45,764 bases of DNA from a virus, in IMG/VR virus record IMGVR_UViG_3300006052_000013. One strand, 5' to 3'. Shown one piece after another: positions 33,015 through 45,300 of the stretch. A program made the translations under genes and the position numbers. Position 1 is the first letter of the stretch; each line of letters begins with the position of its first letter. The notes under the pieces are model-generated. The model worked only from the letters and a program-made list of their open reading frames with translations. It made no database searches and was not told the DNA's origin.

Positions 33015-33028
33015 TGTTTCCTCCGGTA

Positions 33029-33326: not shown

Positions 33327-33354
33327 CTTACCGTGGGTTTCCCCACGGCCCTCG
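33327..33354 (-). repeat. JH motif copy 13
   Basis: CGAGGGCCGUGGGGAAACCCACGGUAAG. Confidence 0.8.
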
Positions 33355-33391
33355 TATCACTGCGATAATCGCAGAGATATGTTTTGAGTTT

Positions 33392-33604: not shown

Positions 33605-33608
33605 TGAT

Positions 33609-33749
33609 TTATACTCGTGCGCCGCCGGCGATGGCAACTGATGCCACCCCACCCAGAAACGCAAGTTCAATCAGCAACCGATACACGTCATGAGAAACAT
33701 ACCACATGATCGCGTCTTGCAGACGTTTGACCACTTTGTCTCGGGACAT
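33609..33749 (-). CDS. small membrane peptide (46 aa)
   Basis: MSRDKVVKRLQDAIMWYVSHDVYRLLIELAFLGGVASVAIAGGARV; ATG after UAGGAGAGGAACAAU; below the track cutoff. Confidence 0.4.
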   Translation of the reverse strand: MSRDKVVKRLQDAIMWYVSHDVYRLLIELAFLGGVASVAIAGGARV

Positions 33750-33803
33750 ATTGTTCCTCTCCTAATAAGGCTCACTCCGGTTTTCGTGCCCCCGGATGGT
33801 GGC

Positions 33804-33833
33804 CTTACGGGTCACCGGAGTGACCCGCCTTCG
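33804..33833 (-). repeat. JH motif copy 14 (variant, GAAGGC flank)
   Basis: CGAAGGCGGGUCACUCCGGUGACCCGUAAG. Confidence 0.65.
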
Positions 33834-33843
33834 GGGAAACAAC

Positions 33844-34059
33844 TTAGGCGGCCTGGTTCAAATCGTACCGGGCCAAATCATGCTGGTTTGCATGGTGAAC
33901 CTTTTCGGCCCACTTTACGGCGACGGCCGAGGTTAGATAGTTGGTTTCTTCGACCGATCCGTCTGAGTGTTCCAGAATAATACGATCGGCGGCCTCGATG
34001 GCCTTGTTGATTGCTTCTTGACGACGCATATCGCGATTGTTGATACTATCCGTGATCAT
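33844..34059 (-). CDS. small hypothetical protein (71 aa)
   Basis: ATG after UAAGGAGAGGAAA. Confidence 0.5.
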   Translation of the reverse strand: MITDSINNRDMRRQEAINKAIEAADRIILEHSDGSVEETNYLTSAVAVKWAEKVHHANQHDLARYDLNQAA

Positions 34060-34093
34060 TTTCCTCTCCTTACAAGGCTCACTCTATTGTGGC

Positions 34094-34122
34094 CTTACCG
34101 TGGGTTTTCCCCACGGCCCTCG
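34094..34122 (-). repeat. JH motif copy 15
   Basis: CGAGGGCCGUGGGGAAAACCCACGGUAAG; abuts a UAA. Confidence 0.8.
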
Positions 34123-34380
34123 TTATATTTGTAGTGGTTTATTTTCGTTGAGACTGCGAGTAACCGCCGCCCAGGAAAATTCCAGACGCATTTCCCGTAC
34201 CTGGGGCACGTCCAGATTCATATGGGAGTAAACGGAAACTACGCAATAATCTAACATTCGACCAGAAGTAACGGCAGTAAGAATGACCCGTGGGCCAACC
34301 TGGAGTTTGACCATGGGTAATTCTTTTTTGACCTTTTCCTCGGTCCATTCCGGATTGGGTGTCGATTTTGCTTTTTTCAT
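34123..34380 (-). CDS. small hypothetical protein (85 aa)
   Basis: ATGA overlap with the upstream gene. Confidence 0.5.
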   Translation of the reverse strand: MKKAKSTPNPEWTEEKVKKELPMVKLQVGPRVILTAVTSGRMLDYCVVSVYSHMNLDVPQVREMRLEFSWAAVTRSLNENKPLQI

Positions 34381-34601
34381 ACCTTTACCATTCCTCCCCA
34401 AGACCGTTGATAAAATACCCGGAACCCGGCGGTTTGAACATCGATCACCGCGCGACGCCTCGCGGTCTCACCCGGAAAGATGAGGTACTTAAACGGCCCC
34501 GCCTCGGTGGTACCGTACGTAATCGTCGGATGAATCACCCGTCGTATTTCGTCGAATTCGCTCTTTTTGACGGCGAACTCAGGCTGATTTGGTCTTGGCA
34601 T
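34377..34601 (-). CDS. small hypothetical protein (74 aa)
   Basis: Start reset to MPRPNQ after AGGAGGCCCGGU. Confidence 0.5.
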   Translation of the reverse strand: MPRPNQPEFAVKKSEFDEIRRVIHPTITYGTTEAGPFKYLIFPGETARRRAVIDVQTAGFRVFYQRSWGGMVKV

Positions 34602-34797
34602 ACCGGGCCTCCTGAATGGTCCCATTTTCGATGACCTTTTTGATCAGACTAGTTTCAAATCCACTTAACTGGAAGCCAAATGGATTGGGCGCCGAACCCT
34701 TTTGTCCGGTCAGTAACCATGTACGATATGCCCTCGCATACCGCCGTTGATTACAAGGTAATCGATGAATGTAATCATCAATAATTTTGTTTTGCAT
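34579..34797 (-). CDS. small hypothetical protein (72 aa)
   Basis: Start reset to MQNKIIDDY after AGGAGAGGAAU. Confidence 0.5.
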   Translation of the reverse strand: MQNKIIDDYIHRLPCNQRRYARAYRTWLLTGQKGSAPNPFGFQLSGFETSLIKKVIENGTIQEARYAKTKSA

Positions 34798-34864
34798 ATT
34801 CCTCTCCTGGTATGGCAGTGTCGACGGCGGAGGCCGTCGCACTCTGAGGTTTCCCTCTGCCACA
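34798..34864 (-). promoter_or_regulatory. Y-shaped 5'-UTR element copy E
   Basis: GUGUGGCAG-A-GAGGGAAACCUC-A-GAGUGCGACGGCCUCCGCCGUCGACACU-GCCAUAC-C-AGGAGAGGAAU-AUG. Confidence 0.55.
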
Positions 34865-34894
34865 CTTACCGTGGAAGTTATCCCACGGCCCTCG
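34865..34894 (-). repeat. JH motif copy 16
   Basis: CGAGGGCCGUGGGAUAACUUCCACGGUAAG. Confidence 0.8.
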
Positions 34895-34895
34895 T

Positions 34896-35123
34896 TCAAA
34901 TACGTTCTACCAGAAAAGGTTCGCCCAAAAACTGGCCATCCTCGAAGGGCGCCACGTTAAATTCAGAACCACACTTAGAACATTTTATGTTTTGACTTAA
35001 CCCACCCCGTCGTCCTTGAAAAAATGTGTCGTTATTACAGTCTGGACAAACGTGACGGTTGGCAATGGCATCAAAAACTGGATCAACAACGGGTGCTTTT
35101 TTCTTACGAAATGGGTTCCACAT
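34896..35123 (-). CDS. Zn-ribbon protein
   Basis: CPDC...CSKC; ATG after AAAGGAGAACGACAAAG. Confidence 0.55.
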   Translation of the reverse strand: MWNPFRKKKAPVVDPVFDAIANRHVCPDCNNDTFFQGRRGGLSQNIKCSKCGSEFNVAPFEDGQFLGEPFLVERI

Positions 35124-35143
35124 CTTTGTCGTTCTCCTTTGTA

Positions 35144-35172
35144 CTTACCACGGGTTACCCCCGTGGCCCTCG
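35144..35172 (-). repeat. JH motif copy 17
   Basis: CGAGGGCCACGGGGGUAACCCGUGGUAAG; abuts a UAA. Confidence 0.8.
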
Positions 35173-35298
35173 TTAGTGACGCGTTATAAACCATTGAACC
35201 ATCAAGATGACCCCGGTAATCGAAAACCCAACGATTACCGCCCCAATCATCGTGGCGATCCAACCATGTTGAGGCTCCTCTTCGTCATTGTTTTTCAT
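35173..35298 (-). CDS. small membrane peptide (41 aa)
   Basis: MKNNDEEEPQHGWIATMIGAVIVGFSITGVILMVQWFITRH; the start overlaps the upstream gene end. Confidence 0.35.
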   Translation of the reverse strand: MKNNDEEEPQHGWIATMIGAVIVGFSITGVILMVQWFITRH

Positions 35299-35467
35299 CT
35301 CTGGTCGCCTTATGATAGGCGCGAACCCGAACAGAATGAACAAAATTTGACATCGGTTCTTTTTTAGAATCTGTTTGGCGAAAGCAAAATTCATTAGACC
35401 CGGCCCGGCAACGAGGGCAGGGGATTAAAATAATGCGATCCCGACTGGCGGGTTTTACTCTTGGCAT
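35285..35467 (-). CDS. small Zn-binding protein (60 aa)
   Basis: Start reset to MPRVKPAS after AAAGGAGAAAACA; CPRC motif. Confidence 0.5.
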   Translation of the reverse strand: MPRVKPASRDRIILIPCPRCRAGSNEFCFRQTDSKKEPMSNFVHSVRVRAYHKATRDEKQ

Positions 35468-35483
35468 TGTTTTCTCCTTTGTA

Positions 35484-35513
35484 CTTACCGGCCCATGACT
35501 GGGCCGGCCCTCG
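35484..35513 (-). repeat. JH motif copy 18
   Basis: CGAGGGCCGGCCCAGUCAUGGGCCGGUAAG. Confidence 0.8.
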
Positions 35514-35533
35514 TTTACCACATTATGAATTAT

Positions 35534-35824
35534 TCATGCCGCCCGCTTTGGCATGACTTTTAAGACTCCCCGCCGTTTGGCAAGATCGAACAGTTGGTAG
35601 TGAATTGCCTGTTCGACGGGCATCGTCGTCGCCAATTTACCCTGGCGTTTAACCTCGGCGATGACCTCGCCACTCGTGGCCTTTTTGAGTTTCTTAATGG
35701 CCAATACGGTGGCGCCGGCGTGGGTATGGGGTTTTAATTTGGTGATATCCACCTTCGGTTTTGCAACCAGCGCGTAAAACTGTCGTCCCGTTGCAGACTG
35801 CACGGGCTTCTTTTGACTTTTCAT
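35534..35824 (-). CDS. DNA-binding-like protein, paralogue of the globular part of 25754..26164
   Basis: Shared pattern R.(L/F)Y.LVA..K.D......H.GA.V.A..KL...T...VI.EV..QGK..T.M; start reset after AUAGGAGAGAUUCAA. Confidence 0.55.
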   Translation of the reverse strand: MKSQKKPVQSATGRQFYALVAKPKVDITKLKPHTHAGATVLAIKKLKKATSGEVIAEVKRQGKLATTMPVEQAIHYQLFDLAKRRGVLKVMPKRAA

Positions 35825-35884
35825 TTGAATCTCTCCTATCACGAACAAATTTGCTTCCAACGCACGGCCTGGAGGGACGAGTGC

Positions 35885-35911
35885 GTTACCACGGTTTCCC
35901 GTGGCCCTCTG
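35885..35911 (-). repeat. JH motif copy 19
   Basis: CAGAGGGCCACGGGAAACCGUGGUAAC; abuts a UAA. Confidence 0.8.
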
Positions 35912-36178
35912 TTATTGAACAGTAATCGGAATAAACCCCGCCGATCGTAGGCAGGACGCACAACTGACCGAGAAGTGATATATTTGTCTTTTTGGGTCGG
36001 TTTCTTCAGGACAACTCTTGCAACTGATTACGCCCATGGAAGTTTCGGTGGCCGGCTCAAAAAACTCCACGTCGCCGGGGTTACCGACATGTTCACATAC
36101 CAAATAACCTGCTTCCCGAACCTCCGGATATTTTTCACATCCGACGATCGGGTATACATCAATATTATCTACTGTCAT
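35912..36178 (-). CDS. Cys-rich hypothetical protein
   Basis: ATG after UAAAGGAGAAACA. Confidence 0.55.
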   Translation of the reverse strand: MTVDNIDVYPIVGCEKYPEVREAGYLVCEHVGNPGDVEFFEPATETSMGVISCKSCPEETDPKRQIYHFSVSCASCLRSAGFIPITVQ

Positions 36179-36197
36179 TGTTTCTCCTTTATTTGGT

Positions 36198-36228
36198 CGT
36201 AACGCCGGGGATCACCCGGCGCCCTCTG
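36198..36228 (-). repeat. JH motif copy 20 (variant)
   Basis: CAGAGGGCGCCGGGUGAUCCCCGGCGUUACG; the upstream ORF stop UGA lies in the loop. Confidence 0.7.
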
Positions 36229-36388
36229 AATATTCTTCCTCTGTCATCTCTTCATCAAGATCAATAAACTCGACGGTGTATTTCATCCCTTTAGAATATT
36301 TCTCTGGAATTAAAGACTCCGCCAAAAGAACCGCCTGGGTGCGGTTTTCTGCCTCCAGTACAGTTTCGTACTTGACCCGCCATCTCAT
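36212..36388 (-). CDS. small acidic protein (58 aa)
   Basis: MRWRVKYETVLEAENR...EEYSEGAG; ATGA overlap with the KTSC gene; below the track cutoff. Confidence 0.4.
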   Translation of the reverse strand: MRWRVKYETVLEAENRTQAVLLAESLIPEKYSKGMKYTVEFIDLDEEMTEEEYSEGAG

Positions 36389-36627
36389 GCCACCCTCCGG
36401 CCGTTTTCCACCAATTCATACTTGTAACGATATCGAACGAACTGGTAGAAAAAACGACCCTTGGAATGTGCCCGTTGAAAGCGGCCGAAGGTCAGGGGAC
36501 CTACGCCAAAGTAACGATACATGCGGCCGGTCAGGAATCTTACGTACAGAATCCGCCGCAGCACGTCATATCCGATACTTTGGATATTGGTCGAATCTAC
36601 CTCGATCATTCCCACTTGTGTTGTCAT
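36385..36627 (-). CDS. KTSC-domain protein
   Basis: VDSTNIQSIGYD...LYVRFLTGRMYRYFGVGPLTFGRFQRAHSKGRFFYQFVR. Confidence 0.65.
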   Translation of the reverse strand: MTTQVGMIEVDSTNIQSIGYDVLRRILYVRFLTGRMYRYFGVGPLTFGRFQRAHSKGRFFYQFVRYRYKYELVENGRRVA

Positions 36628-36636
36628 ATTTCCCTC

Positions 36637-36665
36637 CTTAAACCCCCTCAGAGGGGGTTCCCTCG
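36637..36665 (-). repeat. JH motif copy 21 (variant)
   Basis: CGAGGGAACCCCCUCUGAGGGGGUUUAAG; the upstream ORF stop UGA lies in the loop. Confidence 0.65.
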
Positions 36666-36884
36666 CCTTTCCATCTTGATCATTCCGTACATAATCATCG
36701 CCAGTCCCATGGCCACGACTTCCTCCGGCCGGGGGTAACTTTCAACATGTTTCACCATGGCCGTGGTGAGCGGTATATTCGGCGACACACCCTTTTTAGC
36801 CAGGCGTGTGCGCAGTTCATTTAGGGAGATGACTCCTAGTTCTTCCAATCTTTTCTTGGTTTTTTCTACATTTTGTCGGTTCAT
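36648..36884 (-). CDS. small hypothetical protein (78 aa)
   Basis: Start reset to MNRQNVEK after ACAAGGAGAGAAUUUCAA. Confidence 0.5.
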   Translation of the reverse strand: MNRQNVEKTKKRLEELGVISLNELRTRLAKKGVSPNIPLTTAMVKHVESYPRPEEVVAMGLAMIMYGMIKMERRGNPL

Positions 36885-36903
36885 TTGAAATTCTCTCCTT
36901 GTA

Positions 36904-36931
36904 CTTACCACGGATTTCTCCGTGGCCCTCG
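36904..36931 (-). repeat. JH motif copy 22
   Basis: CGAGGGCCACGGAGAAAUCCGUGGUAAG. Confidence 0.8.
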
Positions 36932-36953
36932 TTATCAGGGACACTACATCTTG

Positions 36954-37364
36954 TTAAATGGGTTCGATTTTATTGACCTCATCCCATTTCAGGCCCAAAA
37001 CGTGAAAGGCCATCCGGGCGTGATAACCAAAATGGTTATCCCCCGTGGTGACTATCCGTTTGCGGAGTTCCAGCTTATCTGCCGTATCGGAGGTACTAGA
37101 TAAACAACTGGCCTGATTACCGTTCTCCCATAGGCCAAGACGGCCTCGGATTACCTCGGTCGTCGCCCATTTGGCATCATGGTCGCTGATGCCATTTTGC
37201 GAGTTCTGTTCATCCGGACCGCGCAACGCCGAAAGAACCCACCATAGGGCCTTCCCCTGTGATATTTTGTAGAGATTGTCGCCACCCCGGTCTAGTACAT
37301 CCGTCGGTGACGAATTTTTGTTGATTTCTTTGGCAATCTCCCGCAGCAATTCAATCCATTTCAT
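36954..37364 (-). CDS. hypothetical protein (136 aa)
   Basis: ATG after UAGGAGAGGAAUUAAC. Confidence 0.55.
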   Translation of the reverse strand: MKWIELLREIAKEINKNSSPTDVLDRGGDNLYKISQGKALWWVLSALRGPDEQNSQNGISDHDAKWATTEVIRGRLGLWENGNQASCLSSTSDTADKLELRKRIVTTGDNHFGYHARMAFHVLGLKWDEVNKIEPI

Positions 37365-37398
37365 GTTAATTCCTCTCCTATTTAAAGATTTGATTGGT

Positions 37399-37428
37399 CT
37401 TACGGGTCACCGAAGTGACCCACCCTCG
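37399..37428 (-). repeat. JH motif copy 23
   Basis: CGAGGGUGGGUCACUUCGGUGACCCGUAAG; UUCG loop; abuts a UAA. Confidence 0.8.
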
Positions 37429-38991
37429 TTAGTCGTTCTGTTTTTCTTTGTACTCCATAGACCGCACGATGACCCCGAACAACAGGTCGCCCAGGCGGTG
37501 CAACATACCCGGAATCACGATCGCGTTGGGGTTGTGGGAGGTTCCCAGAAGGGCGCCAAACCCAAAGTAACCTTTGTGCAACCGGAGTTCCGGGTCGGCC
37601 AGTCCGGGAGACTTTTGAATTTCTCCGTCGTAGTCGTATTGCATTTCATTGTGCCGGAAACTGCAACCGAAGTTCACCAGATCGTCGGGGCGATTCTCAT
37701 AACCGGTCAGGTTATAAAACTCATCCACTTTGGTTTCGGTCTGGGAACGACCCCGCCGGATCACAAAGTCTTTTATGATCCGGTCCCACCCGGTGACATC
37801 TGACACGATGCGCCCCGTCCGCAGTGCCCGGTAGTAATCGGCCCGGTTCTGGGGAAGATCGCCCTCGTAATCTACCAGGTTCGAGGCAGAAAGATCACGA
37901 AATACCCGGTACTTCGTGTTTTTTTGGATGATGTAATCATCCGGATTAAATACGGAGTCCTTGGGATAGTGGGTCAATACCGAATAATCGGTATCAATTC
38001 CTCGATCCTGGGCATCGTGAAGTTGCCGGAGCATCTCGGCGGTAGAGTTTCCCAGGCCAATAAAGAGAAATTTCTTTCCCTTAATTTGCGGGTAAGTGAG
38101 GCGCTTTTGCCAACGGTTACCGGCGTGGGTGACCTCCGCAGATGTCACCATACGGTGGCGATCCGAGAGGTTTTTCGGTTTTCCCAGTCCCAGGCAGTTG
38201 ATGACGATGGGGTACTCCTTAAAACTTTGACCACGGTCATAAACCCCGTGGGCAAGATTGTTCGGAGTAACCGTGGTGACGTCGTTGGTGATAACGTTTA
38301 ATGAATTGGCGTTCTGGATATTTTGCAGAAAATCCCGTACCTCCGATCCTTCGCCGGGCGCCGGTTCCAGGGCATACTCGCCCAGGACCAATCTACGAGG
38401 ATTGTTTCGACTCCCGCCTTTGATATCTTCCCGTGACCAGATTCCAAATGGTTTGCCCTTTTCATAAAGAGTTACATTTTTAAATCCGGTGCGACTCAGG
38501 CCATATCGTACAATTTGGCCCGCCGCCCCACCACCGATGATGGCAATGGGTGTGTTCCCAATGTCCAAATTGATCACGTTATAAAACGTGGACAAACGTC
38601 CGGCGATACCACTCCCAAAAAAATTATTGGAAGTATTTACCGGAGAGACGGCCAAGGCGCGATCAATTACTTGATTTTGCTCGGGCGTTCCCCGGTAAGT
38701 AACACAGTCGGCGGGTTTCGAGAACAACGAAACTTCACCCAAATAATCCAACACCGGAAATTTTTGGTATATTTCATCTCCGGAAACATTACGCAAGACG
38801 TAACTTCCCAGAAACTTTCCCAGCATTTTCCGACGGCCCATTTCAACAATGGCCTGGTTACTCCAACCTTTATCGCGCGTCATACGTTTTAACACGGATA
38901 TCGGATTGGATAACATTATTGGACTAACGACGTTGTACGACTTCATCGCTTCAACTGCCAAGAACGACTTCAACATTTCTTGGTGATTCAT
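37429..38991 (-). CDS. two-dinucleotide-binding-domain flavoprotein (FAD/NAD(P)-dependent oxidoreductase or monooxygenase-like)
   Basis: IAIIGGGAAGQIVRYGL (GxGxxG) and FLFIGLGNSTAEMLRQL (a second Rossmann motif); start reset to MNHQEML after ACAGGAGAAGAACAA. Confidence 0.7.
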   Translation of the reverse strand: MNHQEMLKSFLAVEAMKSYNVVSPIMLSNPISVLKRMTRDKGWSNQAIVEMGRRKMLGKFLGSYVLRNVSGDEIYQKFPVLDYLGEVSLFSKPADCVTYRGTPEQNQVIDRALAVSPVNTSNNFFGSGIAGRLSTFYNVINLDIGNTPIAIIGGGAAGQIVRYGLSRTGFKNVTLYEKGKPFGIWSREDIKGGSRNNPRRLVLGEYALEPAPGEGSEVRDFLQNIQNANSLNVITNDVTTVTPNNLAHGVYDRGQSFKEYPIVINCLGLGKPKNLSDRHRMVTSAEVTHAGNRWQKRLTYPQIKGKKFLFIGLGNSTAEMLRQLHDAQDRGIDTDYSVLTHYPKDSVFNPDDYIIQKNTKYRVFRDLSASNLVDYEGDLPQNRADYYRALRTGRIVSDVTGWDRIIKDFVIRRGRSQTETKVDEFYNLTGYENRPDDLVNFGCSFRHNEMQYDYDGEIQKSPGLADPELRLHKGYFGFGALLGTSHNPNAIVIPGMLHRLGDLLFGVIVRSMEYKEKQND

Positions 38992-39025
38992 TTGTTCTTC
39001 TCCTGTATAAGCCCGATTCATCGGA

Positions 39026-39055
39026 CTTACACCCCCGTTTCCGGGGATGCCCTCG
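39026..39055 (-). repeat. JH motif copy 24
   Basis: CGAGGGCAUCCCCGGAAACGGGGGUGUAAG; has a U-G pair. Confidence 0.75.
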
Positions 39056-39060
39056 TATCA

Positions 39061-39303
39061 CTAAGGAACAAACTGGTACCAAAGAAGTGTCCCCGGTGGA
39101 TAGGGAACCTCCTCGTGTTTTTGTTTCGTGAACCAGATGGCAACCCGTTCCAGATCGGCGTCTGATGCGAGTGCCTCGGTATACTTGGTCTCACCGTCCG
39201 ATTGCAGATTTTCCTTTACAAAGTTATACTGCCGGATATCTGCGAGGGAGGCCTCGACCAGGGCGGTTTCTTTGTCGCCTTTGATAATCAATCGTATTGA
39301 CAT
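39061..39303 (-). CDS. small hypothetical protein (80 aa)
   Basis: ATG after CGAGAGGAUAAC, 1 nt after the upstream stop. Confidence 0.5.
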   Translation of the reverse strand: MSIRLIIKGDKETALVEASLADIRQYNFVKENLQSDGETKYTEALASDADLERVAIWFTKQKHEEVPYPPGTLLWYQFVP

Positions 39304-39304
39304 G

Positions 39305-39499
39305 TTATCCTCTCGTTTTTACCGGTTTGTGCGGGAAGTGAGAGTGACCGTGAGTACTTTTTGGCCAACTTGCCACCGCCGAACGGTGATGTCCCCTGCT
39401 ACCGCGGGAGGACGCCTCGGCGGGACGCGCAAGCCACGAAAAAAGTAGCAACAGTAACAGCAGCGGCCAAAGTGGCGCCAAATTCCTTACGATGTTCAT
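39305..39499 (-). CDS. small secreted-type His/Arg-rich peptide
   Basis: Signal-like LAPLWPLLLLLLLFSWLARPAEA, then SSRGSRGHHRS..THGHSHFPHKP. Confidence 0.45.
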   Translation of the reverse strand: MNIVRNLAPLWPLLLLLLLFSWLARPAEASSRGSRGHHRSAVASWPKSTHGHSHFPHKPVKTRG

Positions 39500-39565
39500 A
39501 TGTTCCTCTCCTGGTATGGCAAACTGAACGGGTACCGTTCAGTTCTGAGGTTTTCCCTCATTGCC
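39500..39565 (-). promoter_or_regulatory. Y-shaped 5'-UTR element copy F
   Basis: AUGGCAA-U-GAGGGAAAACCUC-A-GAACUGAACGGUACCCGUUCAGUU-UGCCAU-ACC-AGGAGAGGAAC. Confidence 0.6.
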
Positions 39566-39593
39566 ATTACCGGACTTATCGTCCGACCCTCTG
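39566..39593 (-). repeat. JH motif copy 25
   Basis: CAGAGGGUCGGACGAUAAGUCCGGUAAU. Confidence 0.75.
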
Positions 39594-39595
39594 TG

Positions 39596-39928
39596 CTACC
39601 GTGTTAAACCCACGGAAGAGTTTTTATTTAGGTGAAAAGCCCGAAGGCAATCTTCCAAGGTTTGTCTCAAACCATCATAGGCGGCCTTTTTGAGCGTCTC
39701 ATCATACGTCTTGATAAAATCCCGGTACTCATCCTCGGTCCACCCAGTCCAGTTGTCGACCGCCTCGTCAAGAACCCCTTCCATATCTTCCTGGTTGTAG
39801 TTCATACGGTGTGACCAAACGAGAGTTTCAGACATGGCCTGCGTTGCCGAGATGGCCCCGATGAAGGCCTCATCCCGGTCAGTTAATTGATCCAAAATGT
39901 TTACTGTCTCGTCAGTCAATACCGACAT
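39596..39928 (-). CDS. acidic hypothetical protein (110 aa)
   Basis: ATG after AAAAGGAGAACAAU. Confidence 0.55.
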   Translation of the reverse strand: MSVLTDETVNILDQLTDRDEAFIGAISATQAMSETLVWSHRMNYNQEDMEGVLDEAVDNWTGWTEDEYRDFIKTYDETLKKAAYDGLRQTLEDCLRAFHLNKNSSVGLTR

Positions 39929-39956
39929 ATTGTTCTCCTTTTAGTCCATATTTGGA

Positions 39957-39983
39957 CTTACCGCCCAAGGTGGGCGGCCCTCA
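39957..39983 (-). repeat. JH motif copy 26
   Basis: UGAGGGCCGCCCACCUUGGGCGGUAAG. Confidence 0.75.
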
Positions 39984-39987
39984 TTGC

Positions 39988-40113
39988 TTACTGCCCCGGC
40001 CCCGACGGAATCGTCAACGCGGCCTCCAGGATGATGAATACACCGGCCATTGCCGCGATAAACAACGCCGTCCAGATATGTTTACGGAACGTCCGCCAAA
40101 TTTGTTTACGCAT
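39988..40113 (-). CDS. small membrane peptide (41 aa)
   Basis: MRKQIWRTFRKHIWTALFIAAMAGVFIILEAALTIPSGPGQ; the start overlaps the upstream stop; below the track cutoff. Confidence 0.35.
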   Translation of the reverse strand: MRKQIWRTFRKHIWTALFIAAMAGVFIILEAALTIPSGPGQ

Positions 40114-40315
40114 GGGCATTCTCCACTTGTTCGGCGGTTAGATCGAGAAGAAGATCAATTTCTGTGGTGGAAAGAGAAGTGTCATTAATTTCAAGAAAAC
40201 TCTTGAGACCTTCTCGGCCACCCCGGCGATATTCTTCCAGGTCAATTTTCTCGAGATTTTCTGCGACTTCGGGGGTGTACATCTTTGCCAATGCTTCTCG
40301 AAGTGAAAGTTTCAT
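40106..40315 (-). CDS. small hypothetical protein (69 aa)
   Basis: ATG after UAAGGAGAACCA. Confidence 0.5.
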   Translation of the reverse strand: MKLSLREALAKMYTPEVAENLEKIDLEEYRRGGREGLKSFLEINDTSLSTTEIDLLLDLTAEQVENAHA

Positions 40316-40340
40316 TGGTTCTCCTTAGTCCATATTTGGA

Positions 40341-40368
40341 CTTACCACTCCTCACGGAATGGCCCTCG
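40341..40368 (-). repeat. JH motif copy 27
   Basis: CGAGGGCCAUUCCGUGAGGAGUGGUAAG; GUGA loop holds the upstream stop; has a U-G pair. Confidence 0.8.
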
Positions 40369-40633
40369 TAAAAAATCCATTTGTTTTAAGTTTGACCAAC
40401 ATATCGGCCAGAATTGAGTATGACCCGATCCAAATATGTCGACCTGCCCTTTTACCGTTGTCGATGTAACGAATTCCGGCGGTGCCCTCGTCCTGGGAAT
40501 ACCATATAATCATCGCGGTGCGGTCACTTGCCTCGCCACGAAAATATCTGGTATCACCCTCGGATTTTCTGGGATATGTTTGTACAAACCCCAATTCTTT
40601 TAAGATATCGTCGGGGTGATCTTTTTCAGTCAT
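40352..40633 (-). CDS. hypothetical protein (93 aa)
   Basis: Start reset to MTEKDHPDD after CAAAGGAGAUAACG. Confidence 0.5.
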   Translation of the reverse strand: MTEKDHPDDILKELGFVQTYPRKSEGDTRYFRGEASDRTAMIIWYSQDEGTAGIRYIDNGKRAGRHIWIGSYSILADMLVKLKTNGFFTRAIP

Positions 40634-40649
40634 CGTTATCTCCTTTGCA

Positions 40650-40677
40650 CTTACGGCCACCGAAGTGACCGCCCTCG
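40650..40677 (-). repeat. JH motif copy 28
   Basis: CGAGGGCGGUCACUUCGGUGGCCGUAAG; UUCG loop; has a U-G pair. Confidence 0.8.
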
Positions 40678-40679
40678 TA

Positions 40680-40916
40680 CTACTGTTTAAAGTGTTGCCC
40701 CGCGGGGAAGGTGATACCCTTCCCAAACTTCCATTCCATGTTTGTCATATCGCCGCCGTCGGTGATAATGACCCGCACGGTGGTGCCCAGGCGGGCGCCC
40801 ACCGAATGGGTATAGTGTTGGAACGCCTTCACCGCCTCTTCCGGCCCCACAAATCGTCTCACATATTCATAGGCGCCATCCGGAAAAAATTGGCAAACAG
40901 AAAATTCATTTTCCAT
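40680..40916 (-). CDS. small hypothetical protein (78 aa)
   Basis: ATG after ACAGGAGAAAAAC. Confidence 0.55.
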   Translation of the reverse strand: MENEFSVCQFFPDGAYEYVRRFVGPEEAVKAFQHYTHSVGARLGTTVRVIITDGGDMTNMEWKFGKGITFPAGQHFKQ

Positions 40917-40930
40917 GTTTTTCTCCTGTA

Positions 40931-40957
40931 CTTACCGGGTTTTCAACCCGGCCCTCG
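40931..40957 (-). repeat. JH motif copy 29
   Basis: CGAGGGCCGGGUUGAAAACCCGGUAAG. Confidence 0.8.
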
Positions 40958-40958
40958 T

Positions 40959-41234
40959 TTATTTTTCAACTCCCATTCTTCCAAGCAACTGCATGACCGA
41001 CTTTGTCCGAAACGGAGACAACTGCCGGGGTATGGTGTGCATCAGATGCACACCGACCCCGACTTCCAGTAAGGCCGAGTCGATATGATTTAACACCGCC
41101 GATTCTGACTTTGCCTCCCCGGCTCTTTGCAGGGCCGCGATCGCCAATTCCAAAGCATCTCGATAATTGACCCCGGTGGCCCGTTTTGCGGCCTCTTGTT
41201 CTTTGTGAAAGTCGTCGACATTTGTTTCAAACAT
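40959..41234 (-). CDS. hypothetical protein (91 aa)
   Basis: Start reset to MFETNVDD after CAAAGGAGAACAAA. Confidence 0.5.
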   Translation of the reverse strand: MFETNVDDFHKEQEAAKRATGVNYRDALELAIAALQRAGEAKSESAVLNHIDSALLEVGVGVHLMHTIPRQLSPFRTKSVMQLLGRMGVEK

Positions 41235-41250
41235 TTTGTTCTCCTTTGTA

Positions 41251-41278
41251 CTTACGGTCACCGGGGTGACCGCCCTCG
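41251..41278 (-). repeat. JH motif copy 30
   Basis: CGAGGGCGGUCACCCCGGUGACCGUAAG. Confidence 0.8.
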
Positions 41279-41279
41279 T

Positions 41280-41522
41280 TCAATCTTGATGATAACCACC
41301 GTCCGGATTGGGCGGCAGTAACTCATCATAGGGATTACCGTCGAACAACTTTGCCAACGGAATAATCTCAATTTCTTTCCCGACTATGTTCAACGCCGCC
41401 ACGACGGCCACCGACTTTCCGGTGGACTTATCCTGGCAGTCGATTAAACAAAGTCGGTCGTTGTGATTGGCGTTCGACAATGTTCGGAAGTTGGCGATCT
41501 GACCCTTCGAAAGTTTTGGCAT
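41280..41522 (-). CDS. small hypothetical protein (80 aa)
   Basis: ATG after ACAAGGAGCGUAAU. Confidence 0.55.
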   Translation of the reverse strand: MPKLSKGQIANFRTLSNANHNDRLCLIDCQDKSTGKSVAVVAALNIVGKEIEIIPLAKLFDGNPYDELLPPNPDGGYHQD

Positions 41523-41537
41523 ATTACGCTCCTTGTA

Positions 41538-41567
41538 CTTACCGACTCATTTTTGAGTCGGCCCTCG
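41538..41567 (-). repeat. JH motif copy 31
   Basis: CGAGGGCCGACUCAAAAAUGAGUCGGUAAG. Confidence 0.8.
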
Positions 41568-41570
41568 TTT

Positions 41571-41590
41571 TGGCCATCAGGCGGCCCTCG
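41571..41590 (-). repeat. truncated JH 5' half directly upstream of copy 31
   Basis: CGAGGGCCGCCUGAUGGCCA matches the 5' half of copy 33 (CGAGGGCCGCCUGAG...) but lacks the 3' arm and GGUAAG. Confidence 0.6.
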
Positions 41591-41888
41591 TTGCTTTTTT
41601 GAGCTTGGCCCGGATTGCCCCGGTATCCACCCCATCCAACAGTTCCTCGACGGCCTGCGCCCATTCCAAAACATCCTCGGCCAGGTTATAAGCCCGTTTG
41701 TTTTTCGGGGACAGTGCCTCGGGATCATTGTCCAGGGCCGTGGTCTGGTCCTCGGCAATGATACTGAGACTCATCGCCTCACCATGGGCGACTTCGACCG
41801 CATTGATAACCTTTGCCAATTGCGCCTCGATCTTTTGACGAAAGAGACGTTCCGGAAGTACAATCAACTTTTTTCTTTTGTAAGTCAT
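41577..41888 (-). CDS. hypothetical protein (103 aa)
   Basis: Start reset to MTYKRKKL after CCAAGGAGAGGAACAAA; the C-terminus ..TRAA reads into the truncated JH. Confidence 0.5.
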   Translation of the reverse strand: MTYKRKKLIVLPERLFRQKIEAQLAKVINAVEVAHGEAMSLSIIAEDQTTALDNDPEALSPKNKRAYNLAEDVLEWAQAVEELLDGVDTGAIRAKLKKATRAA

Positions 41889-41976
41889 TTTGTTCCTCTC
41901 CTTGGTAAGTGACGGATCGACGTCATCCTTGCAACTGGCCGTTCGAAGGGGACTCAACAAACACACACCCTTACTA

Positions 41977-42003
41977 GGCGCGGGCGAGTGGAATCGAACC
42001 GAC
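41977..42003 (-). other. tRNA 3'-end-like fragment (T-loop plus acceptor 3' strand) inside a 5' UTR
   Basis: RNA sense GGUUCGAUUCCACUCGCCCGCGCC; no matching 5' half, D arm or anticodon arm. Confidence 0.3.
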
Positions 42004-42009
42004 CCGTCA

Positions 42010-42035
42010 CTTACCGCCCGACCGGGCGGCCCTCG
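42010..42035 (-). repeat. JH motif copy 32
   Basis: CGAGGGCCGCCCGGUCGGGCGGUAAG; abuts a UAA. Confidence 0.8.
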
Positions 42036-42239
42036 TTAGTGTTCCAACTCCACCAAACCAACCTCATCATCAACGCAGGTTTCATGACCCTGTTTCCACA
42101 GTTCCTCGGCCAACAATAGAACCTCTCCCCGATTTTGGAAGTTCTTTTTGGTATATTTCACGATCTGCGGAGACAGGCAATCAACATCCGTTGTGAATTT
42201 AATTCGCCCACCTTTTTCCTGTCCTATGTGATATATCAT
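42036..42239 (-). CDS. small hypothetical protein (67 aa)
   Basis: Start reset to MIYHIGQEKGG after AAAGAGAGGAACA. Confidence 0.5.
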   Translation of the reverse strand: MIYHIGQEKGGRIKFTTDVDCLSPQIVKYTKKNFQNRGEVLLLAEELWKQGHETCVDDEVGLVELEH

Positions 42240-42334
42240 TGTTCCTCTCTTTTTGAAGTACCGGGCCGCACGCGCTCGGAGTCTCGTCATGGACTACTCA
42301 ACCATGATCTTGTCGTCTTGGGTGAGACCCGGTA

Positions 42335-42360
42335 CTTACCGCCTTCTCAGGCGGCCCTCG
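42335..42360 (-). repeat. JH motif copy 33
   Basis: CGAGGGCCGCCUGAGAAGGCGGUAAG; the upstream ORF stop UGA lies in the loop. Confidence 0.8.
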
Positions 42361-42637
42361 TAAGGTTCTGGTAAAGTGATTTCAGGTCTTTGCCCCCACC
42401 CAAATCGCGGTAGGGCACGGTATAGTCACCAAACGGTTCACGGGTGAACCGCTTCCGTTCCCACACCTGAAAGTCTTCGGCGACGAACAGGAATTCCAAC
42501 GGATCAGACCGCCGCCGGAGTATCCAGGTATCATCGACGATTCGCAAAATCGGTCTCATATAAATAGACCAACCCTGTTCTTTCAGATCGAGCAACAACT
42601 TGGTGAATTCTTTGCTTTGTTCGTGGTTCTTTTTCAT
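42347..42637 (-). CDS. hypothetical protein (96 aa)
   Basis: Start reset to MKKNHEQSK after AUGGAGAGAAAACA. Confidence 0.5.
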   Translation of the reverse strand: MKKNHEQSKEFTKLLLDLKEQGWSIYMRPILRIVDDTWILRRRSDPLEFLFVAEDFQVWERKRFTREPFGDYTVPYRDLGGGKDLKSLYQNLTRAA

Positions 42638-42652
42638 TGTTTTCTCTCCATA

Positions 42653-42678
42653 CTTACCACCCCGTGGGGTGGCCCTCG
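42653..42678 (-). repeat. JH motif copy 34
   Basis: CGAGGGCCACCCCACGGGGUGGUAAG; abuts a UGA. Confidence 0.8.
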
Positions 42679-42942
42679 TCAACCAATATCGTTATTGAAC
42701 CAGTTAGTAGTGTCCTGGTCTTTTTGGTGAAGTTCAGGAAATGCGTCGACCAGTTTGTCGGCGATGTTTTCGGCGACGTGATGACTCTCACTGGCCACGG
42801 CCGTGTATTCCCGTTCATAATCGGTACTGCCCGGCCCGACGTACTCCCAGGTTCCTTTGTTGGTCTTTTCGAACGTCTGGGCCTCTACTCGTACGGTCGT
42901 GACATAGACGGTGCGTTGTTCTTTTTGCAAAGTTCTTGCCAT
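42679..42942 (-). CDS. hypothetical protein (87 aa)
   Basis: Start reset to MARTLQKEQ after AGGAGAGGAAU. Confidence 0.5.
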   Translation of the reverse strand: MARTLQKEQRTVYVTTVRVEAQTFEKTNKGTWEYVGPGSTDYEREYTAVASESHHVAENIADKLVDAFPELHQKDQDTTNWFNNDIG

Positions 42943-43006
42943 ATTCCTCTCCTGGTACAGCAACAAGAGATGTAATCTCTTGTTGGGATTTCCTCCCTTA
43001 ACTGTA
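42943..43006 (-). promoter_or_regulatory. Y-shaped 5'-UTR element copy G
   Basis: GUACAGU-UAA-GGGAGGAAAUCCC-A-ACAAGAGAUUACAUCUCUUGU-UGCUGUAC-C-AGGAGAGGAAU-AUG. Confidence 0.6.
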
Positions 43007-43034
43007 CTTACCGCGGAGTGATCCGCGGCCCTCG
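43007..43034 (-). repeat. JH motif copy 35
   Basis: CGAGGGCCGCGGAUCACUCCGCGGUAAG. Confidence 0.8.
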
Positions 43035-43035
43035 T

Positions 43036-43443
43036 TCAGGCAATCTTTTTCATATCCGTGAAGTAAACCTCACGGATACCGTCATGGTCATCCGCATCCC
43101 AGAACTCTTTATCAAGTTCTACGATGAACATTCCCCCACGTTCCGCCTCGACGATCTTGCCGACCTGCCGTGGATTATATTCATCCGCGGACAGTTCGAC
43201 TCGATCACCCTCTTTAAAGCCGCCGTAACTTGGCACGGTGGCCTCAACCGGGGGTGTCTTGGGTTTGGGAACGTACTCTTTCCTCAGCTTCATCGCCGAC
43301 CGAATCCGAACGCCGCGGTTGGTCCGAAGATTGGTTCCATTCCAACCTCCGTAGGAGGAAACGGAATCCAATCGGACGGGAACCAGTTTGTTACTGACTT
43401 TGACGACGTACGTCTTACCAACTTCTACCTCATTCTTTTTCAT
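43036..43443 (-). CDS. hypothetical protein (135 aa)
   Basis: ATG after CAAGGAGAGGAACA. Confidence 0.6.
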   Translation of the reverse strand: MKKNEVEVGKTYVVKVSNKLVPVRLDSVSSYGGWNGTNLRTNRGVRIRSAMKLRKEYVPKPKTPPVEATVPSYGGFKEGDRVELSADEYNPRQVGKIVEAERGGMFIVELDKEFWDADDHDGIREVYFTDMKKIA

Positions 43444-43675
43444 TGTTCCTCTCCTTGAAATCCGAAATCACGCCGCGCGGGGAGGGATGGTTAGTTCCGG
43501 GGTCCAGTTGGCCTGGGCGCGGTTAGTTGGCTGATGTTCCGAACCGGGTGGTTGAAAAGGTGATTAACTAGTACTCACCTTTTGACCATCTCGGCCCACT
43601 TAGGCAACGTTGGCCCTGACGGCGAATGGGAAAGACCAGGATAACTCATACATCCCCGCCCGATGTAATCTCGGA

Positions 43676-43703
43676 CTTACCACCTCAGATGAGGTGGCCC
43701 TCG
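43676..43703 (-). repeat. JH motif copy 36
   Basis: CGAGGGCCACCUCAUCUGAGGUGGUAAG; abuts a UAA. Confidence 0.8.
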
Positions 43704-43976
43704 TTAATCAACAACCCAACCATCTTTCACGATGTCCTCGAAACTGCGATAGGCCAACTGTTCCGCGTCCCTTAGATTTTTCAGGGCCTCCGTGTCAAAC
43801 ACATTGACTATGAAAAGAGTGAAGGGAAATTCTTTTGACTCCGCCAGGACGGCATAATCAGGCTTCTGTCCATTACGCCGGACCAGGGGCAGAAAAGGCC
43901 AACGTGGCCAGGAGTTCGGGTCTTTCAGGAAGTTCATCGTGATTTCTTCGAGACTAACCTTAACCAGTTTTTTCAT
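43704..43976 (-). CDS. hypothetical protein (90 aa), first ORF of the array
   Basis: Start reset to MKKLVKVS after CAAGGAGAGGAACACA. Confidence 0.55.
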   Translation of the reverse strand: MKKLVKVSLEEITMNFLKDPNSWPRWPFLPLVRRNGQKPDYAVLAESKEFPFTLFIVNVFDTEALKNLRDAEQLAYRSFEDIVKDGWVVD

Positions 43977-45265
43977 TGTGTTCCTCTCCTTGTTCCCGGT
44001 GCTCTTATCCAGGCTTGGGACTGGCGTGGCTTGGTATGGCAATCTGAGAGGTTTTATTCTCAGATTGGATTTTCCGCCCCACGGCGCATTAACGACTGTA
44101 TTCAGGAGGAGAGTCCCTACTAACAGTCGCCCCTCTGCATGACCTTACGGTCATACACAGCGATTACCATCGGGAGGAGAGTCCCTTGGTAATCTATGGA
44201 CTATACAATTGTCTCAGTAATCTTGGAAACCATCCCAACTCCGATATAAATTGTGCACCGGAGTTATTTAGGCATTCTGTTCCAAAAGGTTTCATCTTTC
44301 TAGTTGATCCGGGGCGCATAACGCCGCTCAACTGTTTGGGAATGTACCGTCCGCGATGGGCACTCTGACATTCTTACTTGGGTCGTAGATCGTTGACAAC
44401 CGTCCGTCTTTCGGTTCGCTTTTCGTGGGGTTTAGCAACCAGTCTAACTGGGATCACCACTTTAAGAACCAGGTTTATCGAAACACCTGATTCTCGCGAC
44501 TCCTACTCGCAAGGCCCTCTGTGTCAATAGATTCTCCCGATTGCCGGGAGTTTGAACCTAGATTTTGCCACTACTCTTTATAACCTACATGCTCAGGACT
44601 TGGGACCTGATTCGGTCGTAGTGGACTTCACGCCTGGCTTTATCGCATTTCGCTTATTCCGGCGTGACCAGATAAAATCGGTACGTCCTATCCGGCGGTC
44701 AGAATACTAATCGCGCCATCCGGGACTTCCCGAAGACCGTGAGGTACGACCTGTGAACTCCACTGTGGGGTTTGGCCCACGCCTTAAATCTTCTAAAGCC
44801 AACTGGGATGTCAACATATTCTTACCTCCCGCCCGCCGTTGGAACCGTTCCAAACTCTTACGAGTTTTCAATGGACTCTCCGTCCCCGGTAGGGTCTGAG
44901 GTTGGCCCGAGTGTCTCTAATCTCGGATTTTTCTGAAGATTGGCAGATATTACAGTAATCGCCCTTCGTGCTTCTGGATTTCTCTTACGATCTCTGATGA
45001 CGGGAGTTTCCTCGGTCCCAGGGTTTAGATTCTCTCGAATCTCACGGGTGTCCGTCAAGTAGAGGTTTAATCGGCCGTTCATTCTGAGAAGGTACTCAGT
45101 TTTTCCCTATTCCCTTTTCCCAGACCGTCCCGTGACAGGCGCTTTGCTGGGTACTCGGACTCAGTTCCGAACTACCGAATCTAGATTTCAATGATCCACA
45201 AGGTCACCAGGTAGGGCTCCTATTGGTCTTCCCTGGTGCCTTAACCATAATCCGTTAGATTGGAC
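43977..45265 (-). ncRNA. candidate large structured non-coding RNA or long leader (~1.3 kb, ORF-free)
   Basis: No SD-preceded ORF in any frame. Dense hairpins, several with GNRA loops, and G-U pairs that work only in the minus sense. Starts just downstream of the promoter at 45272-45300. Confidence 0.35.
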
Positions 45266-45271: not shown

Positions 45272-45300
45272 ATTATAACCTAGTTATGCCTTGATGAAAA
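45272..45300 (-). promoter_or_regulatory. sigma70-type promoter candidate (TTTTCA-17-TATAAT)
   Basis: Minus sense TTTTCA TCAAGGCATAACTAGGT TATAAT in an AT-rich region; a perfect -10 hexamer. Confidence 0.55.

Follow-up and report, generated by a model that had tools for sequence, protein, structure and literature searches.

The virus record IMGVR_UViG_3300006052_000013 is a complete 45.8-kb JGI metagenome contig from an uncultivated phage, and its whole length of 45,764 nucleotides is referred to here as the window. The genes of the window all lie on the minus strand. Approximately 40 of them, mostly small and running from ~44.1 to 27.1 kb in transcription order, comprise an early/middle operon whose gene junctions carry a recurrent RNA element. 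The element forms an array of 36 twister-like cores (27097..44139, minus strand), each consisting of a two-nucleotide P2 3' strand, GAGGG, a P1 hairpin, U^AA (with the caret at the predicted cleavage site) and a two-nucleotide P2 5' strand. In many leaders, the core is followed by a clamp helix in which the nucleotides just past the hairpin pair with a run located just before the Shine-Dalgarno sequence (SD). Comparative sequence analysis establishes that the core is of twister type and that complete ribozymes occupy equivalent sites in related phages. For the clamp, a role as the terminal stem of a processed downstream mRNA is proposed with a probability of roughly one half.

A repeated core at the gene junctions

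A regular expression and hairpin scan for the core, written as [AC/CA]-GAGGG-hairpin-U^AA-[GU/UG], identifies 36 copies on the minus strand and 1 on the plus strand. The exact form ACGAGGGCC-N(10-30)-GGTAAGT is matched 17 times where 0 matches are expected, rising to 24 with relaxed matching, and only on the minus strand. A junction covariance model further revealed a class of variants with the form (A)CAGAGGGCC-hairpin-GGUAA[U/C]G. The copies from both the covariance model and the scan have UAA and GAGGG, the latter replaced by GAAGG in a single case. Between 44.0 and 26.2 kb, 36 genes are separated from what lies upstream by 20 nt or more, and 35 of these have a core before them; none stands before the five genes whose start overlaps or abuts the previous open reading frame (ORF).

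Covariation indicates that P1 and P2 are helices at the RNA level. Across 24 aligned copies of the P1 hairpin, 98.8% of the cells are paired, with 56 double changes and with G-U pairs present, values that 0 of 500 shuffles reach. Every one of the 36 copies has a stem of at least 6 bp followed directly by N-AA. The P1 stems are 6-9 bp long and are capped by loops of 4-7 nt, many of them GNRA or UUCG, and the conserved blocks lie 16 to 21 nt apart. The short P2 covaries as well: its two base pairs are AC/GU in 20 copies, CA/UG in 6 and CC/GG in 2 (shuffle P<5e-5). Both P2 pairs are formed in 29/36 window copies and a third pair in 7/36.

Five minus-strand copies illustrate the arrangement. The core at 43675..43704 reads AC-GAGGG-P1 (43697-43680)-U(43679)^A(43678)AGU. 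Another, at 43006..43035, precedes a Y-shaped element described below, and the one at 42652..42679 has a "default" leader with no insert and an SD 2 nt past UAAGU. In the core at 42334..42361, the stop codon of the upstream ORF falls inside the P1 loop. The fifth copy lies at 42009..42036.

Several other classes of intergenic element were considered and rejected. A two-box sigma-type promoter is excluded by the variable spacing of the conserved blocks, which spans 16-21 nt where a fixed spacing within 1 bp is expected, and a fully covarying stem lies between the blocks. An N4-like hairpin promoter does not account for the variable spacing, the 4-7-nt loops or the RNA-type covariation of the stem. 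Intrinsic terminators are not a match, as there is no U tract and a terminator scan gave no enrichment. For an RNase III site of the T7 type (a duplex of ~20 bp), the P1 stems are too short, and P1 and the clamp are side-by-side hairpins and not one duplex. The conserved flanks are not mutually complementary as they would be in an integron attC-like site. Finally, no trans-acting RNA complementary to ACGAGGG or UAAGU is encoded in the window.

Relationship to type-P5 twister ribozymes

The twister class was reportedly introduced by Roth et al. in 2014. When the region from 27 to 45.8 kb was scanned by E-value against all 4227 Rfam families, eight sub-threshold matches were obtained from one family only, the type-P5 twister RF02684. 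All eight lie on the gene strand at junctions or at UCCCAAG (L4-type) hairpins. The RF02684 model has the consensus cGCA-GAGgG-[P1 hairpin]-UAA-UGCg-GC-Aaga-cCGG-UCcCAAGCC-CGg, and the alignments place GAGGG, P1 and UAA on conserved model positions (GAGGG at 5-9 and UAA at 30-32). At the Rfam gathering score (37.6 bits for RF02684), the window has no match, its best scores being 30.0 and 29.7 bits.

Read on the minus-strand mRNA, the junction element corresponds in sequence to one half of a type-P5 twister ribozyme, the half with the catalytic core. The hairpin would then be P1, and GAGGG would be the L1 strand that carries the catalytic G together with the GGG of pseudoknot T1. U^AA would be the predicted cleavage site, and the flanking dinucleotides would form a shortened P2 with AC, CA or CC as its 3' strand and GU, UG or GG as its 5' strand. 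In twisters, the cleavage-site U adjoins P1; known members need an L4-P4/L1-T1 architecture in which L4/P4 is key to the active fold (PMC5408937).

The window cores resemble RF02684 in the order and sequence of the P2 3' strand, GAGGG, a closed P1, U^AA and the P2 5' strand. They also often have the L2 dinucleotide AC or GC, and P1 and P2 covary. They differ in that all but one or two of the 36 copies are without P4 and hence without both pseudoknots, that P2 has 2 bp instead of 4, and that no copy reaches the gathering score. A further difference is the downstream clamp strand that competes with P2; no such strand was found in the twister reviews consulted. Because all but one or two copies fall short in both the P4/L4 domain and the gathering score, the window cores are not classifiable as RF02684 members. 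They are best described as twister-derived, while the copies in sister phages are ordinary members of the family.

The window has only two L4-type hairpins (44019 and 44604). One belongs to the sole canonically complete twister (44009..44139, minus strand), which reads GCA-GAGGG-P1 (44130-44092)-U^AA-UGC-GC-P3 (CGUGG..CCACG)-P4 (CCAG-UCCCAAGC-CUGG) and stands shortly before the first early gene (AUG 43975). It scores 30.0 bits with an E-value of 0.0077; it carries a P3 insertion, and two long insertions depress its score. The other is an orphan P4/L4-type hairpin, CAGG-UCCCAAGU-CCUG (44594..44632, minus strand), which has a P2-like stem and is without GGG-P1-UAA. The 10 kb upstream of the window end hold no core and no L4 hairpin.

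A clamp helix that begins at the predicted cleavage site

A sequence-only reading of the window had proposed that the conserved GGUAAGU following the junction hairpin often pairs with a complementary run immediately before the SD. The three long helices that it listed are real and lie where it placed them, all on the minus strand. The first is GGUAAGUGACGG (42015-42004) with CCGUCACUUACC (41915-41904). The second, AAGUACCGGG(UC) (42337-42326) with (GG)CCCGGUACUU (42267-42256), extends to 12 bp, and the third, AAGUCCGAGAUUAC (43678-43665) with GUGAUUUCGGAUUU (43471-43458), contains G-U pairs that, as had been noted, exist only in the minus-strand RNA. The GGUAAGU strand itself needs to be redrawn: UAAGU is indeed part of the core, whereas the two G's are the last pairs of P1 and not a separate single strand. 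That reading did not recognize the type-P5 twister identity of the core, the start of the clamp at the predicted cleavage site, or the competition with P2.

In minimum free energy (MFE) folds, the 5' strand of the third helix (43665..43678) has the predicted A+1 as its first nucleotide, and its 3' strand (43458..43471) stops 3 nt short of the SD that serves the gene with its start at 43443, so that 193 nt are enclosed. The leader at 42256..42337 has the 12-bp helix 42337-42326/42267-42256 with 58 nt enclosed. The leader at 41904..42015 has a 14-bp helix (42012-41999/41920-41907) with 78 nt enclosed, and its complementarity runs 3 nt upstream of the predicted cut, to 42015/41904. Short clamps that enclose only a loop exist as well, at positions a few bases away from the approximate ones given before. 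They are AAGUCAAU-CUCCCC-AUUGACUU at 32847..32868 (32868-32861/32854-32847) and AGUCCA-AAUA-UGGACU at 39943..39958 (39958-39953/39948-39943), with an identical copy of the latter at 40327-40342 (40342-40337/40332-40327), all on the minus strand.

The folds, which are nearest-neighbor predictions that do not include pseudoknots, place the clamp consistently. In the 13 leaders first examined, whose inserts between UAAGU and SD measure 15 nt or more, all 13 MFE folds have a helix that begins 0-2 nt past the hairpin and ends just before the SD, with SD and AUG unpaired. Across the window, a full clamp is found in 19/23 insert-bearing leaders, with 0-2 nt between the predicted scissile bond and the helix and 1-8 nt between the helix and an unpaired SD. 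Two of the remaining insert-bearing leaders have a 5'-proximal hairpin, and the leader at 37427 and the complete twister (44135) have no clamp. The clamp of 35909 ends 21 nt from the SD. When the predicted cut product (A+1 to AUG) was folded for 29 leaders of 18-120 nt from the window and two sister phages (L110 and L060), 21/29 had a clamp, defined as an outermost helix that starts no more than 2 nt from the 5' end and ends no more than 8 nt from the SD. Dinucleotide shuffles predict 1.9/29.

As UAAGU is common to the copies, any ACUUA pairs with any of them, and the decisive test is therefore the variable extension. Here, cognate 5' and 3' anchors pair at -11.4 kcal/mol with 7.9 bp, compared with -5.1 kcal/mol and 5.1 bp for non-cognate anchors (0/100,000 permutations). 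In the variant class with UAAUG, UAACG or UAAGG, the 3' strand of the clamp changes in step to CAUUA, CGUUA or CCUUA, giving pairs such as UAACGG/CCGUUA, AACGCAC/GUGCGUU, AUGGCA/UGCCAU and UAAGG/CCUUA. The copies are paralogous, and the counts overstate the number of independent events; there are ~8 distinct clamp sequences in the window in addition to those of L110 and L060.

Clamp lengths range from 5 to 14 bp. In 20 window clamps aligned on the predicted scissile bond, positions +3 and +4 are paired in 20/20 (with G-C, U-A, C-G and G-U as alternatives), +2 in 16/20 and +1 in 11/20, compared with 9/20 at -2 and 2/20 at -3. These frequencies indicate that the helix begins at the predicted cut site. 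The 5' strand of the clamp consists of A+1 and A+2 together with the 5' strand of P2. Since the clamp and P2 use the same nucleotides, the two predicted helices are mutually exclusive. Two assignments of the clamp to a canonical twister helix were rejected. In a P5 helix, the partner strands would lie upstream of P2 and downstream of P4, unlike those of the clamp, and the sequence after the 3' strand of the clamp is not GAGGG, as P2 of a type-P1 arrangement with the SD as L1 would have it.

Complete twisters in sister phages and other loci

The nearest relatives by primase (45-55% identical) include the sister phages L110 and L060, whose genomes were read as ~20-kb pieces. Both carry complete type-P5 twisters above the 37.6-bit gathering score, with five of 37.9-57.9 bits in L110 and three of 39.2-44.6 bits in L060, all in 5' untranslated regions with the SD immediately downstream. 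A covariance model made from the window cores alone recovers these copies. Their P2 has 3-4 bp (GCA/UGC, GCC/GGC), and the core is followed by the P3/P4 domain and then directly by the SD. Five further complete copies are present in L235.

The clamp is conserved in L110 and L060 with compensatory changes, so that the absence from homologues that was to count against it was not found. The sister-phage clamps enclose the ribozyme's own P4 and sometimes P3, through the pairs UAAUGCGC..GCGACAUUA, UAAGGCAC..GUGACCUUA, UAAUGC..GCAUUA and UAAUGC..GCGUUA. In the uncleaved complete twisters of L110 and L060, the P2 fold is the MFE fold or lies within 2.5-5.7 kcal/mol of it, and in 5/9 of those scanned, the predicted cleaved product folds into a clamp with 0-1 unpaired 5' nucleotides. 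L235 is mostly without a clamp. The clamp is enriched in this sub-clade and is not universal.

A pattern scan of IMG/VR extended the search to other phages and found at least 120 stretches with type-P5 twisters. These contain at least 156 distinct twisters, of which at least 141 are followed directly by an SD and ORF, with up to 12 per 12 kb among the matches listed. Also among the matches listed, the L2 dinucleotide covaries with the L4 loop end (T2) as AC:GU in 106 cases and GC:GC in 31, which confirms the reading of the architecture. According to reviews, P5 occurs in only ~1% of twisters; phage contigs appear to be a large reservoir of the type. Complete type-P5 arrays in which each copy stands directly upstream of an SD and ORF were seen in the IMG/VR loci L167, L148, L133/L144, L159, L211 and L229. 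Array sizes include 12 in 12 kb (IMGVR_UViG_3300014204_000010), 7 in L148, and 5 plus 5 (IMGVR_UViG_3300027896_000024).

Other structured elements were noted in these relatives. L060 has repeated structured intergenic elements that start at the stop codon (7392-7434, 9149-9189, 15468-15510, 17178-17218 and 19591-19631) and include the families UAA-GUUUGGCAAC..AGCUUCAAC..GGAGACAAAC closed by GUUUG/CAAAC and UAG-UUCCGAUC..GAAGCCC..UUCCGGAACU. A relative, L109, has a tRNA (67.9 bits) followed by a weak YrlA/Y-RNA-like match (28.7 bits; gathering score 69) at 238-310 and 551-677.

Inserts, default leaders and Y elements

The slot between L2 and the SD, which is the P3/P4 site in complete twisters, hosts modules of 0-220 nt in the window, in agreement with the earlier proposal that one fixed point in the leader accommodates variable inserts. 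Thirteen leaders are of the default kind, with the SD 1-13 nt past the core. In 22 leaders beside the complete twister, the P3/P4 slot is filled by other modules, namely small hairpins, seven Y-shaped three-way junctions and larger folds. Given that the sister phages hold P3/P4 in the same slot, this variability is attributed to replacement or decay of a peripheral domain of the ribozyme. Long-insert leaders almost always have the extended SD GGAGAGGAA(C/U), and default leaders mostly have SDs of the AGGAGAAC type; an insert and its SD seem to move together as a unit.

Each of the seven members of the Y family has clamp strands at the common position, a GAGGGGAAACCUC-type hairpin and a long hairpin that differs entirely in sequence from copy to copy. 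Compensatory change is seen in 12/20 predicted pairs of the family. In the member at 42955..43007 (minus strand), the clamp is GUACAGU/GCUGUAC and the two hairpins are GGGAGGAAAUCCC (A) and ACAAGAGA..UCUCUUGU (B); the SD AGGAGAGG comes next. Six further Y elements lie on the minus strand within 28691..39568, with clamp strands at 39567-39562/39521-39516, 34865-34859/34816-34810, 32487-32481/32438-32432, 32128-32122/32076-32070, 30667-30662/30621-30616 and 28743-28738/28696-28691. The seven elements precede seven proteins that have no detectable mutual similarity, which indicates modular leaders and not by-products of gene duplication. The suggestion of a family of modular leader RNAs, one of two that the sequence-only reading had offered, is upheld by these related elements.

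One insert has a feature of its own. In the leader following the core at 42034, the insert (41921-41998, minus strand) contains a tRNA T-loop-like GGUUCGAUUCC and then CUCGCCCGCGCCU, and resembles a T-arm with an acceptor 3' end. It could be the remnant of a tRNA gene or a chance resemblance.

A model for the clamp and its alternatives

At about even odds (roughly 0.5), the clamp is read as a stem at the 5' terminus of the processed downstream mRNA, with insulation of the SD as a further role. Prior to cleavage, the nucleotides past UAA would be held in P2. Scission would then separate the cistrons, with the upstream fragment departing with P1 as its 3'-end hairpin, and the new 5' end would be captured by the clamp. 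In closing the leader module as a domain, the clamp would leave SD and AUG single-stranded at a constant distance, and a base-paired 5' terminus may resist 5'-end-dependent decay. Refolding triggered by scission fits the behavior of L110 and L060, in which the P2 fold is at or near the MFE in the uncleaved RNA and the cleaved product is predicted to adopt the clamp.

A number of points weigh against this model, which is built from sequence and predicted folds. In the window, P2 has only 2 bp and the clamp 5-14 bp, so the clamp should win even in the uncleaved RNA, and it could block the twister fold rather than follow it. Complementarity extends 3-4 nt upstream of the predicted cut in two copies (42034 and 39054), and U-1 is pairable in 15/20 of the aligned clamps, often as an isolated possibility; both fit a helix formed in uncleaved RNA. 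A helix boundary beside P1 is also what simple side-by-side hairpins would give. As for catalysis, the P4 hairpin with its UCCCAAGC loop, which makes pseudoknots T1 to the L1 GGG and T2 to L2, is present in only one or two of the 36 window cores, and 32/35 window cores have no L4 within 90 nt. In other phage loci, a canonical L4 is nearby in 178/192 cores, and the inspected ones of the 14 exceptions have variant L4 loops. Lastly, only 10/141 diverse IMG/VR type-P5 twisters (among the matches listed) have a clamp as defined above, and a 5'-terminal clamp is therefore not a general requirement.

The missing L4 is the point from which two other accounts depart. The P4-less cores may be catalytically dead twister descendants, with P1 and the clamp serving as structural punctuation of a long polycistronic mRNA. 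In that role they may bracket a host-RNase site with protective 3' and 5' hairpins, offer a platform to an RNA-binding protein or insulate the SD so that it stays open, with GAGGG and UAA kept for non-catalytic reasons. The contrast between the window and other phages in L4, the lack of any window copy at the gathering score, and a geometry that is not absolute (insert 37427 without a clamp and clamp 35909 ending far from its SD) all fit such relics. Nevertheless, GAGGG, UAA and the 2-bp P2 are kept in 36 copies despite almost complete divergence of the P1 stems, which implies that purifying selection acts on precisely the catalytic nucleotides, for which a non-catalytic reader is not known. 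On balance, loss of catalysis is possible but judged unlikely. Conversely, the P4-less cores might still be cleaved if the P4/L4 domain were supplied in trans, as in a natural split, multiple-turnover twister, though this is a long shot. The orphan UCCCAAGU hairpin (44632-44594) is a candidate donor, and a phage protein could be an alternative one. The GU at the loop end of the hairpin is complementary to the AC after UAAGU in 7/10 default leaders from the main class (UAAGU). Against a split twister, only ~5 base pairs would hold the hairpin. If true, one cofactor would process more than 30 junctions and the clamp would capture each new 5' end.

The competition between clamp and P2 opens a different possibility, in which the clamp is an antagonist or switch that pairs the cleavage-site A's and the P2 5' strand to keep particular junctions uncleaved. 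In a conditional variant, an SD-bound ribosome, for example, would melt the 3' strand, and default and clamped junctions would be processed differently. The shared nucleotides, the capacity of 5-14-bp clamps to outcompete a 2-bp P2 in full-length leaders, the complementarity that includes U-1 in 15/20 and enters P1 in two copies, and a 3' strand that ends 1-8 nt from the SD and within the ribosome footprint speak for it. However, the complete twisters of the sister phages already have the P2 fold as or near the MFE when uncleaved, and the unscored pseudoknots would favor P2 further. A ligand- or ribosome-dependent switch is without evidence, and most window cores, being without P4, need no inhibitor; an antagonist is considered doubtful. 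Two further explanations are far less probable. An insertion hot spot after GGUAAGU for small mobile elements (MITE-like or IS200/605-like), whose terminal inverted repeat would mimic a clamp, had been the second suggestion of the sequence-only reading. It would account for inserts of widely differing size at one position and for seven related Y elements at different junctions before unrelated genes. It is not supported, as the 5' arm is conserved core sequence that covaries with the upstream P2 strand, the G-U pairs make the helices strand-specific RNA features, and the slot is occupied in the sister phages by their own, already clamped P3/P4. Hallmarks of mobile elements are also missing: no target-site duplication was seen at the insert slot, exact-motif scans of IMG/VR and metagenome contigs gave only single chance-like matches with no dispersed copies and no close relative with the motif, and no presence/absence polymorphism of inserts was observed among four identical contigs of the phage. 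Equally improbable is a DNA-level signal at the junctions, such as a phage-sigma promoter, an N4-like hairpin promoter or a recombination site, to which the clamp would be incidental. The phage encodes a sigma factor (29013-30362) and the motif stands upstream of nearly every gene; yet the blocks are spaced by 16-21 nt with fully compensatory change between them, the GNRA/UUCG loops and G-U pairs are features of RNA, and the motif matches an RNA family with complete members in the sister phages.

Comparison with known systems

RiboJ insulators, reportedly described by Lou et al. in 2012, combine a hammerhead ribozyme and a hairpin upstream of the SD. The phage arrangement is similar in that a ribozyme (core) lies directly upstream of a structured element, the SD is exposed, the upstream context would be cut or insulated, and the same layout serves each gene. 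It differs in being natural, twister-derived and repeated 36 times in one operon, and its hairpin is formed by the nucleotides past the predicted cut. Emory, Bouvet and Belasco (1992) are said to have found that 5'-terminal stem-loops with no more than 2-4 unpaired nucleotides stabilize E. coli mRNAs, as in the ompA 5' untranslated region. The phage helix likewise starts 0-2 nt from the predicted 5' end and upstream of an accessible SD, whereas its 5' end would come from RNA cleavage (5'-OH) and not from transcription initiation. The RNase III sites of T7 are intercistronic duplexes of the early mRNA, ~20 bp long and usually with an internal loop, that are cut by a host protein. They share with the phage elements the repetition of structures between early cistrons, which would yield monocistronic mRNAs with a 3' hairpin, but the phage hairpins have 6-9 bp and ribozyme-type conserved flanks. 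The PeSL cassettes of T4-type phages carry an early promoter and are proposed mediators of recombination (PMC2839356). Like them, the phage motif is a repeated intergenic element beside small early ORFs in a plastic region with a modular link to unrelated genes; unlike them, it corresponds to an RNA family and lacks the geometry of a two-box promoter.

To date, the role of bacterial and phage twister and hammerhead ribozymes is described as unknown, with the processing of polycistronic mRNA merely suggested (PMC6765202, PMC10085705). A core before essentially every independently translated early gene offers a testable function, namely the cutting of a long early transcript into translation units. 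Two features go beyond the twister descriptions that were found: a helix at the predicted cut site that occupies the P2 strand, and an array of cores that have the catalytic nucleotides without P4/L4. The P4-less cores would represent either a new way to complete or replace a ribozyme domain or ribozymes that are turning into structural punctuation. As the design mirrors engineered ribozyme insulators, it could be a natural source of parts. In the literature searched, no paper was found on arrays of twisters between phage genes, on cores without P4 or on a clamp that competes with P2, an absence that is no proof of novelty.

The early leader and the phage

A candidate sigma-70-type early promoter, TTTTCA-N17-TATAAT, is located at 45272..45300 on the minus strand. 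Between it and the AUG of the first early gene (43975) lies ~1.29 kb without a credible ORF, and the early operon appears to be driven by this host-type promoter ~1.3 kb upstream. The leader (43976-45265, minus strand) holds the complete twister (44139-44009) and the orphan P4/L4 hairpin (44632-44594), as well as a degenerate core-like CAGAGGG with a hairpin near 44522-44490. If the first twister cuts, the leader would be freed as an RNA of ~1.17 kb. It also has two copies of GGGACUCUCCUCC, near 44185-44173 and 44117-44105, in which CUCUCCU is complementary to the AGGAGAG SD of many downstream genes.

The phage encodes a DNA polymerase, an AEP primase, helicases, an RNA ligase and the above-mentioned sigma factor. 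A sequence identical to the window is held in a 71.7-kb ENA contig, and one window protein is also on record on a contig of up to 99.6 kb. Other contigs of the same phage (L107, L108 and L232-L234) are 100% identical over the overlap and therefore offer no strain variation to exploit. Among isolated phages none is close: tblastn with the window primase gives identities of no more than 34%, and megablast of 30-45.8 kb gives no match. The search for loci related to the 530-aa early ORF found no relative, and its exact sequence is absent from the records; the sigma-factor homologue search returned only the query itself. ARAGORN found no tRNA in the window.

A few further features of the window are of potential interest. 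The core at 32890 is followed by a short ORF (AUG 32828) of ~35-36 aa that is hydrophobic, omitted by public gene calls and located upstream of a 52-aa gene at 32709. Similarly, the ENA record has no call for a 60-aa ORF (35467-35285) that follows the core at 35512. An intergenic stretch of ~280 nt (26820-27097, minus strand) lies between the core at 27124 and the gene starting at 26819; the predicted fold is very stable (~-131 kcal/mol for the leader as a whole), and the stretch may hold a structured RNA or an uncalled small ORF. Based on the Pfam annotation of the identical ENA contig and on PHROG matches, a protein with an Acb2/Tad1-hairpin domain (22283-22669, minus strand) is a candidate anti-CBASS/Thoeris sponge. 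It is adjoined by a T4 Rnl1-type RNA ligase (22670-23818, minus strand) and a DNA methylase, also assigned by Pfam and PHROG. At the contig end (45720-45764), a 14-nt unit (GGGGCAACCGCGCC) is repeated three times in tandem, in or beside an ORF that runs off the end.

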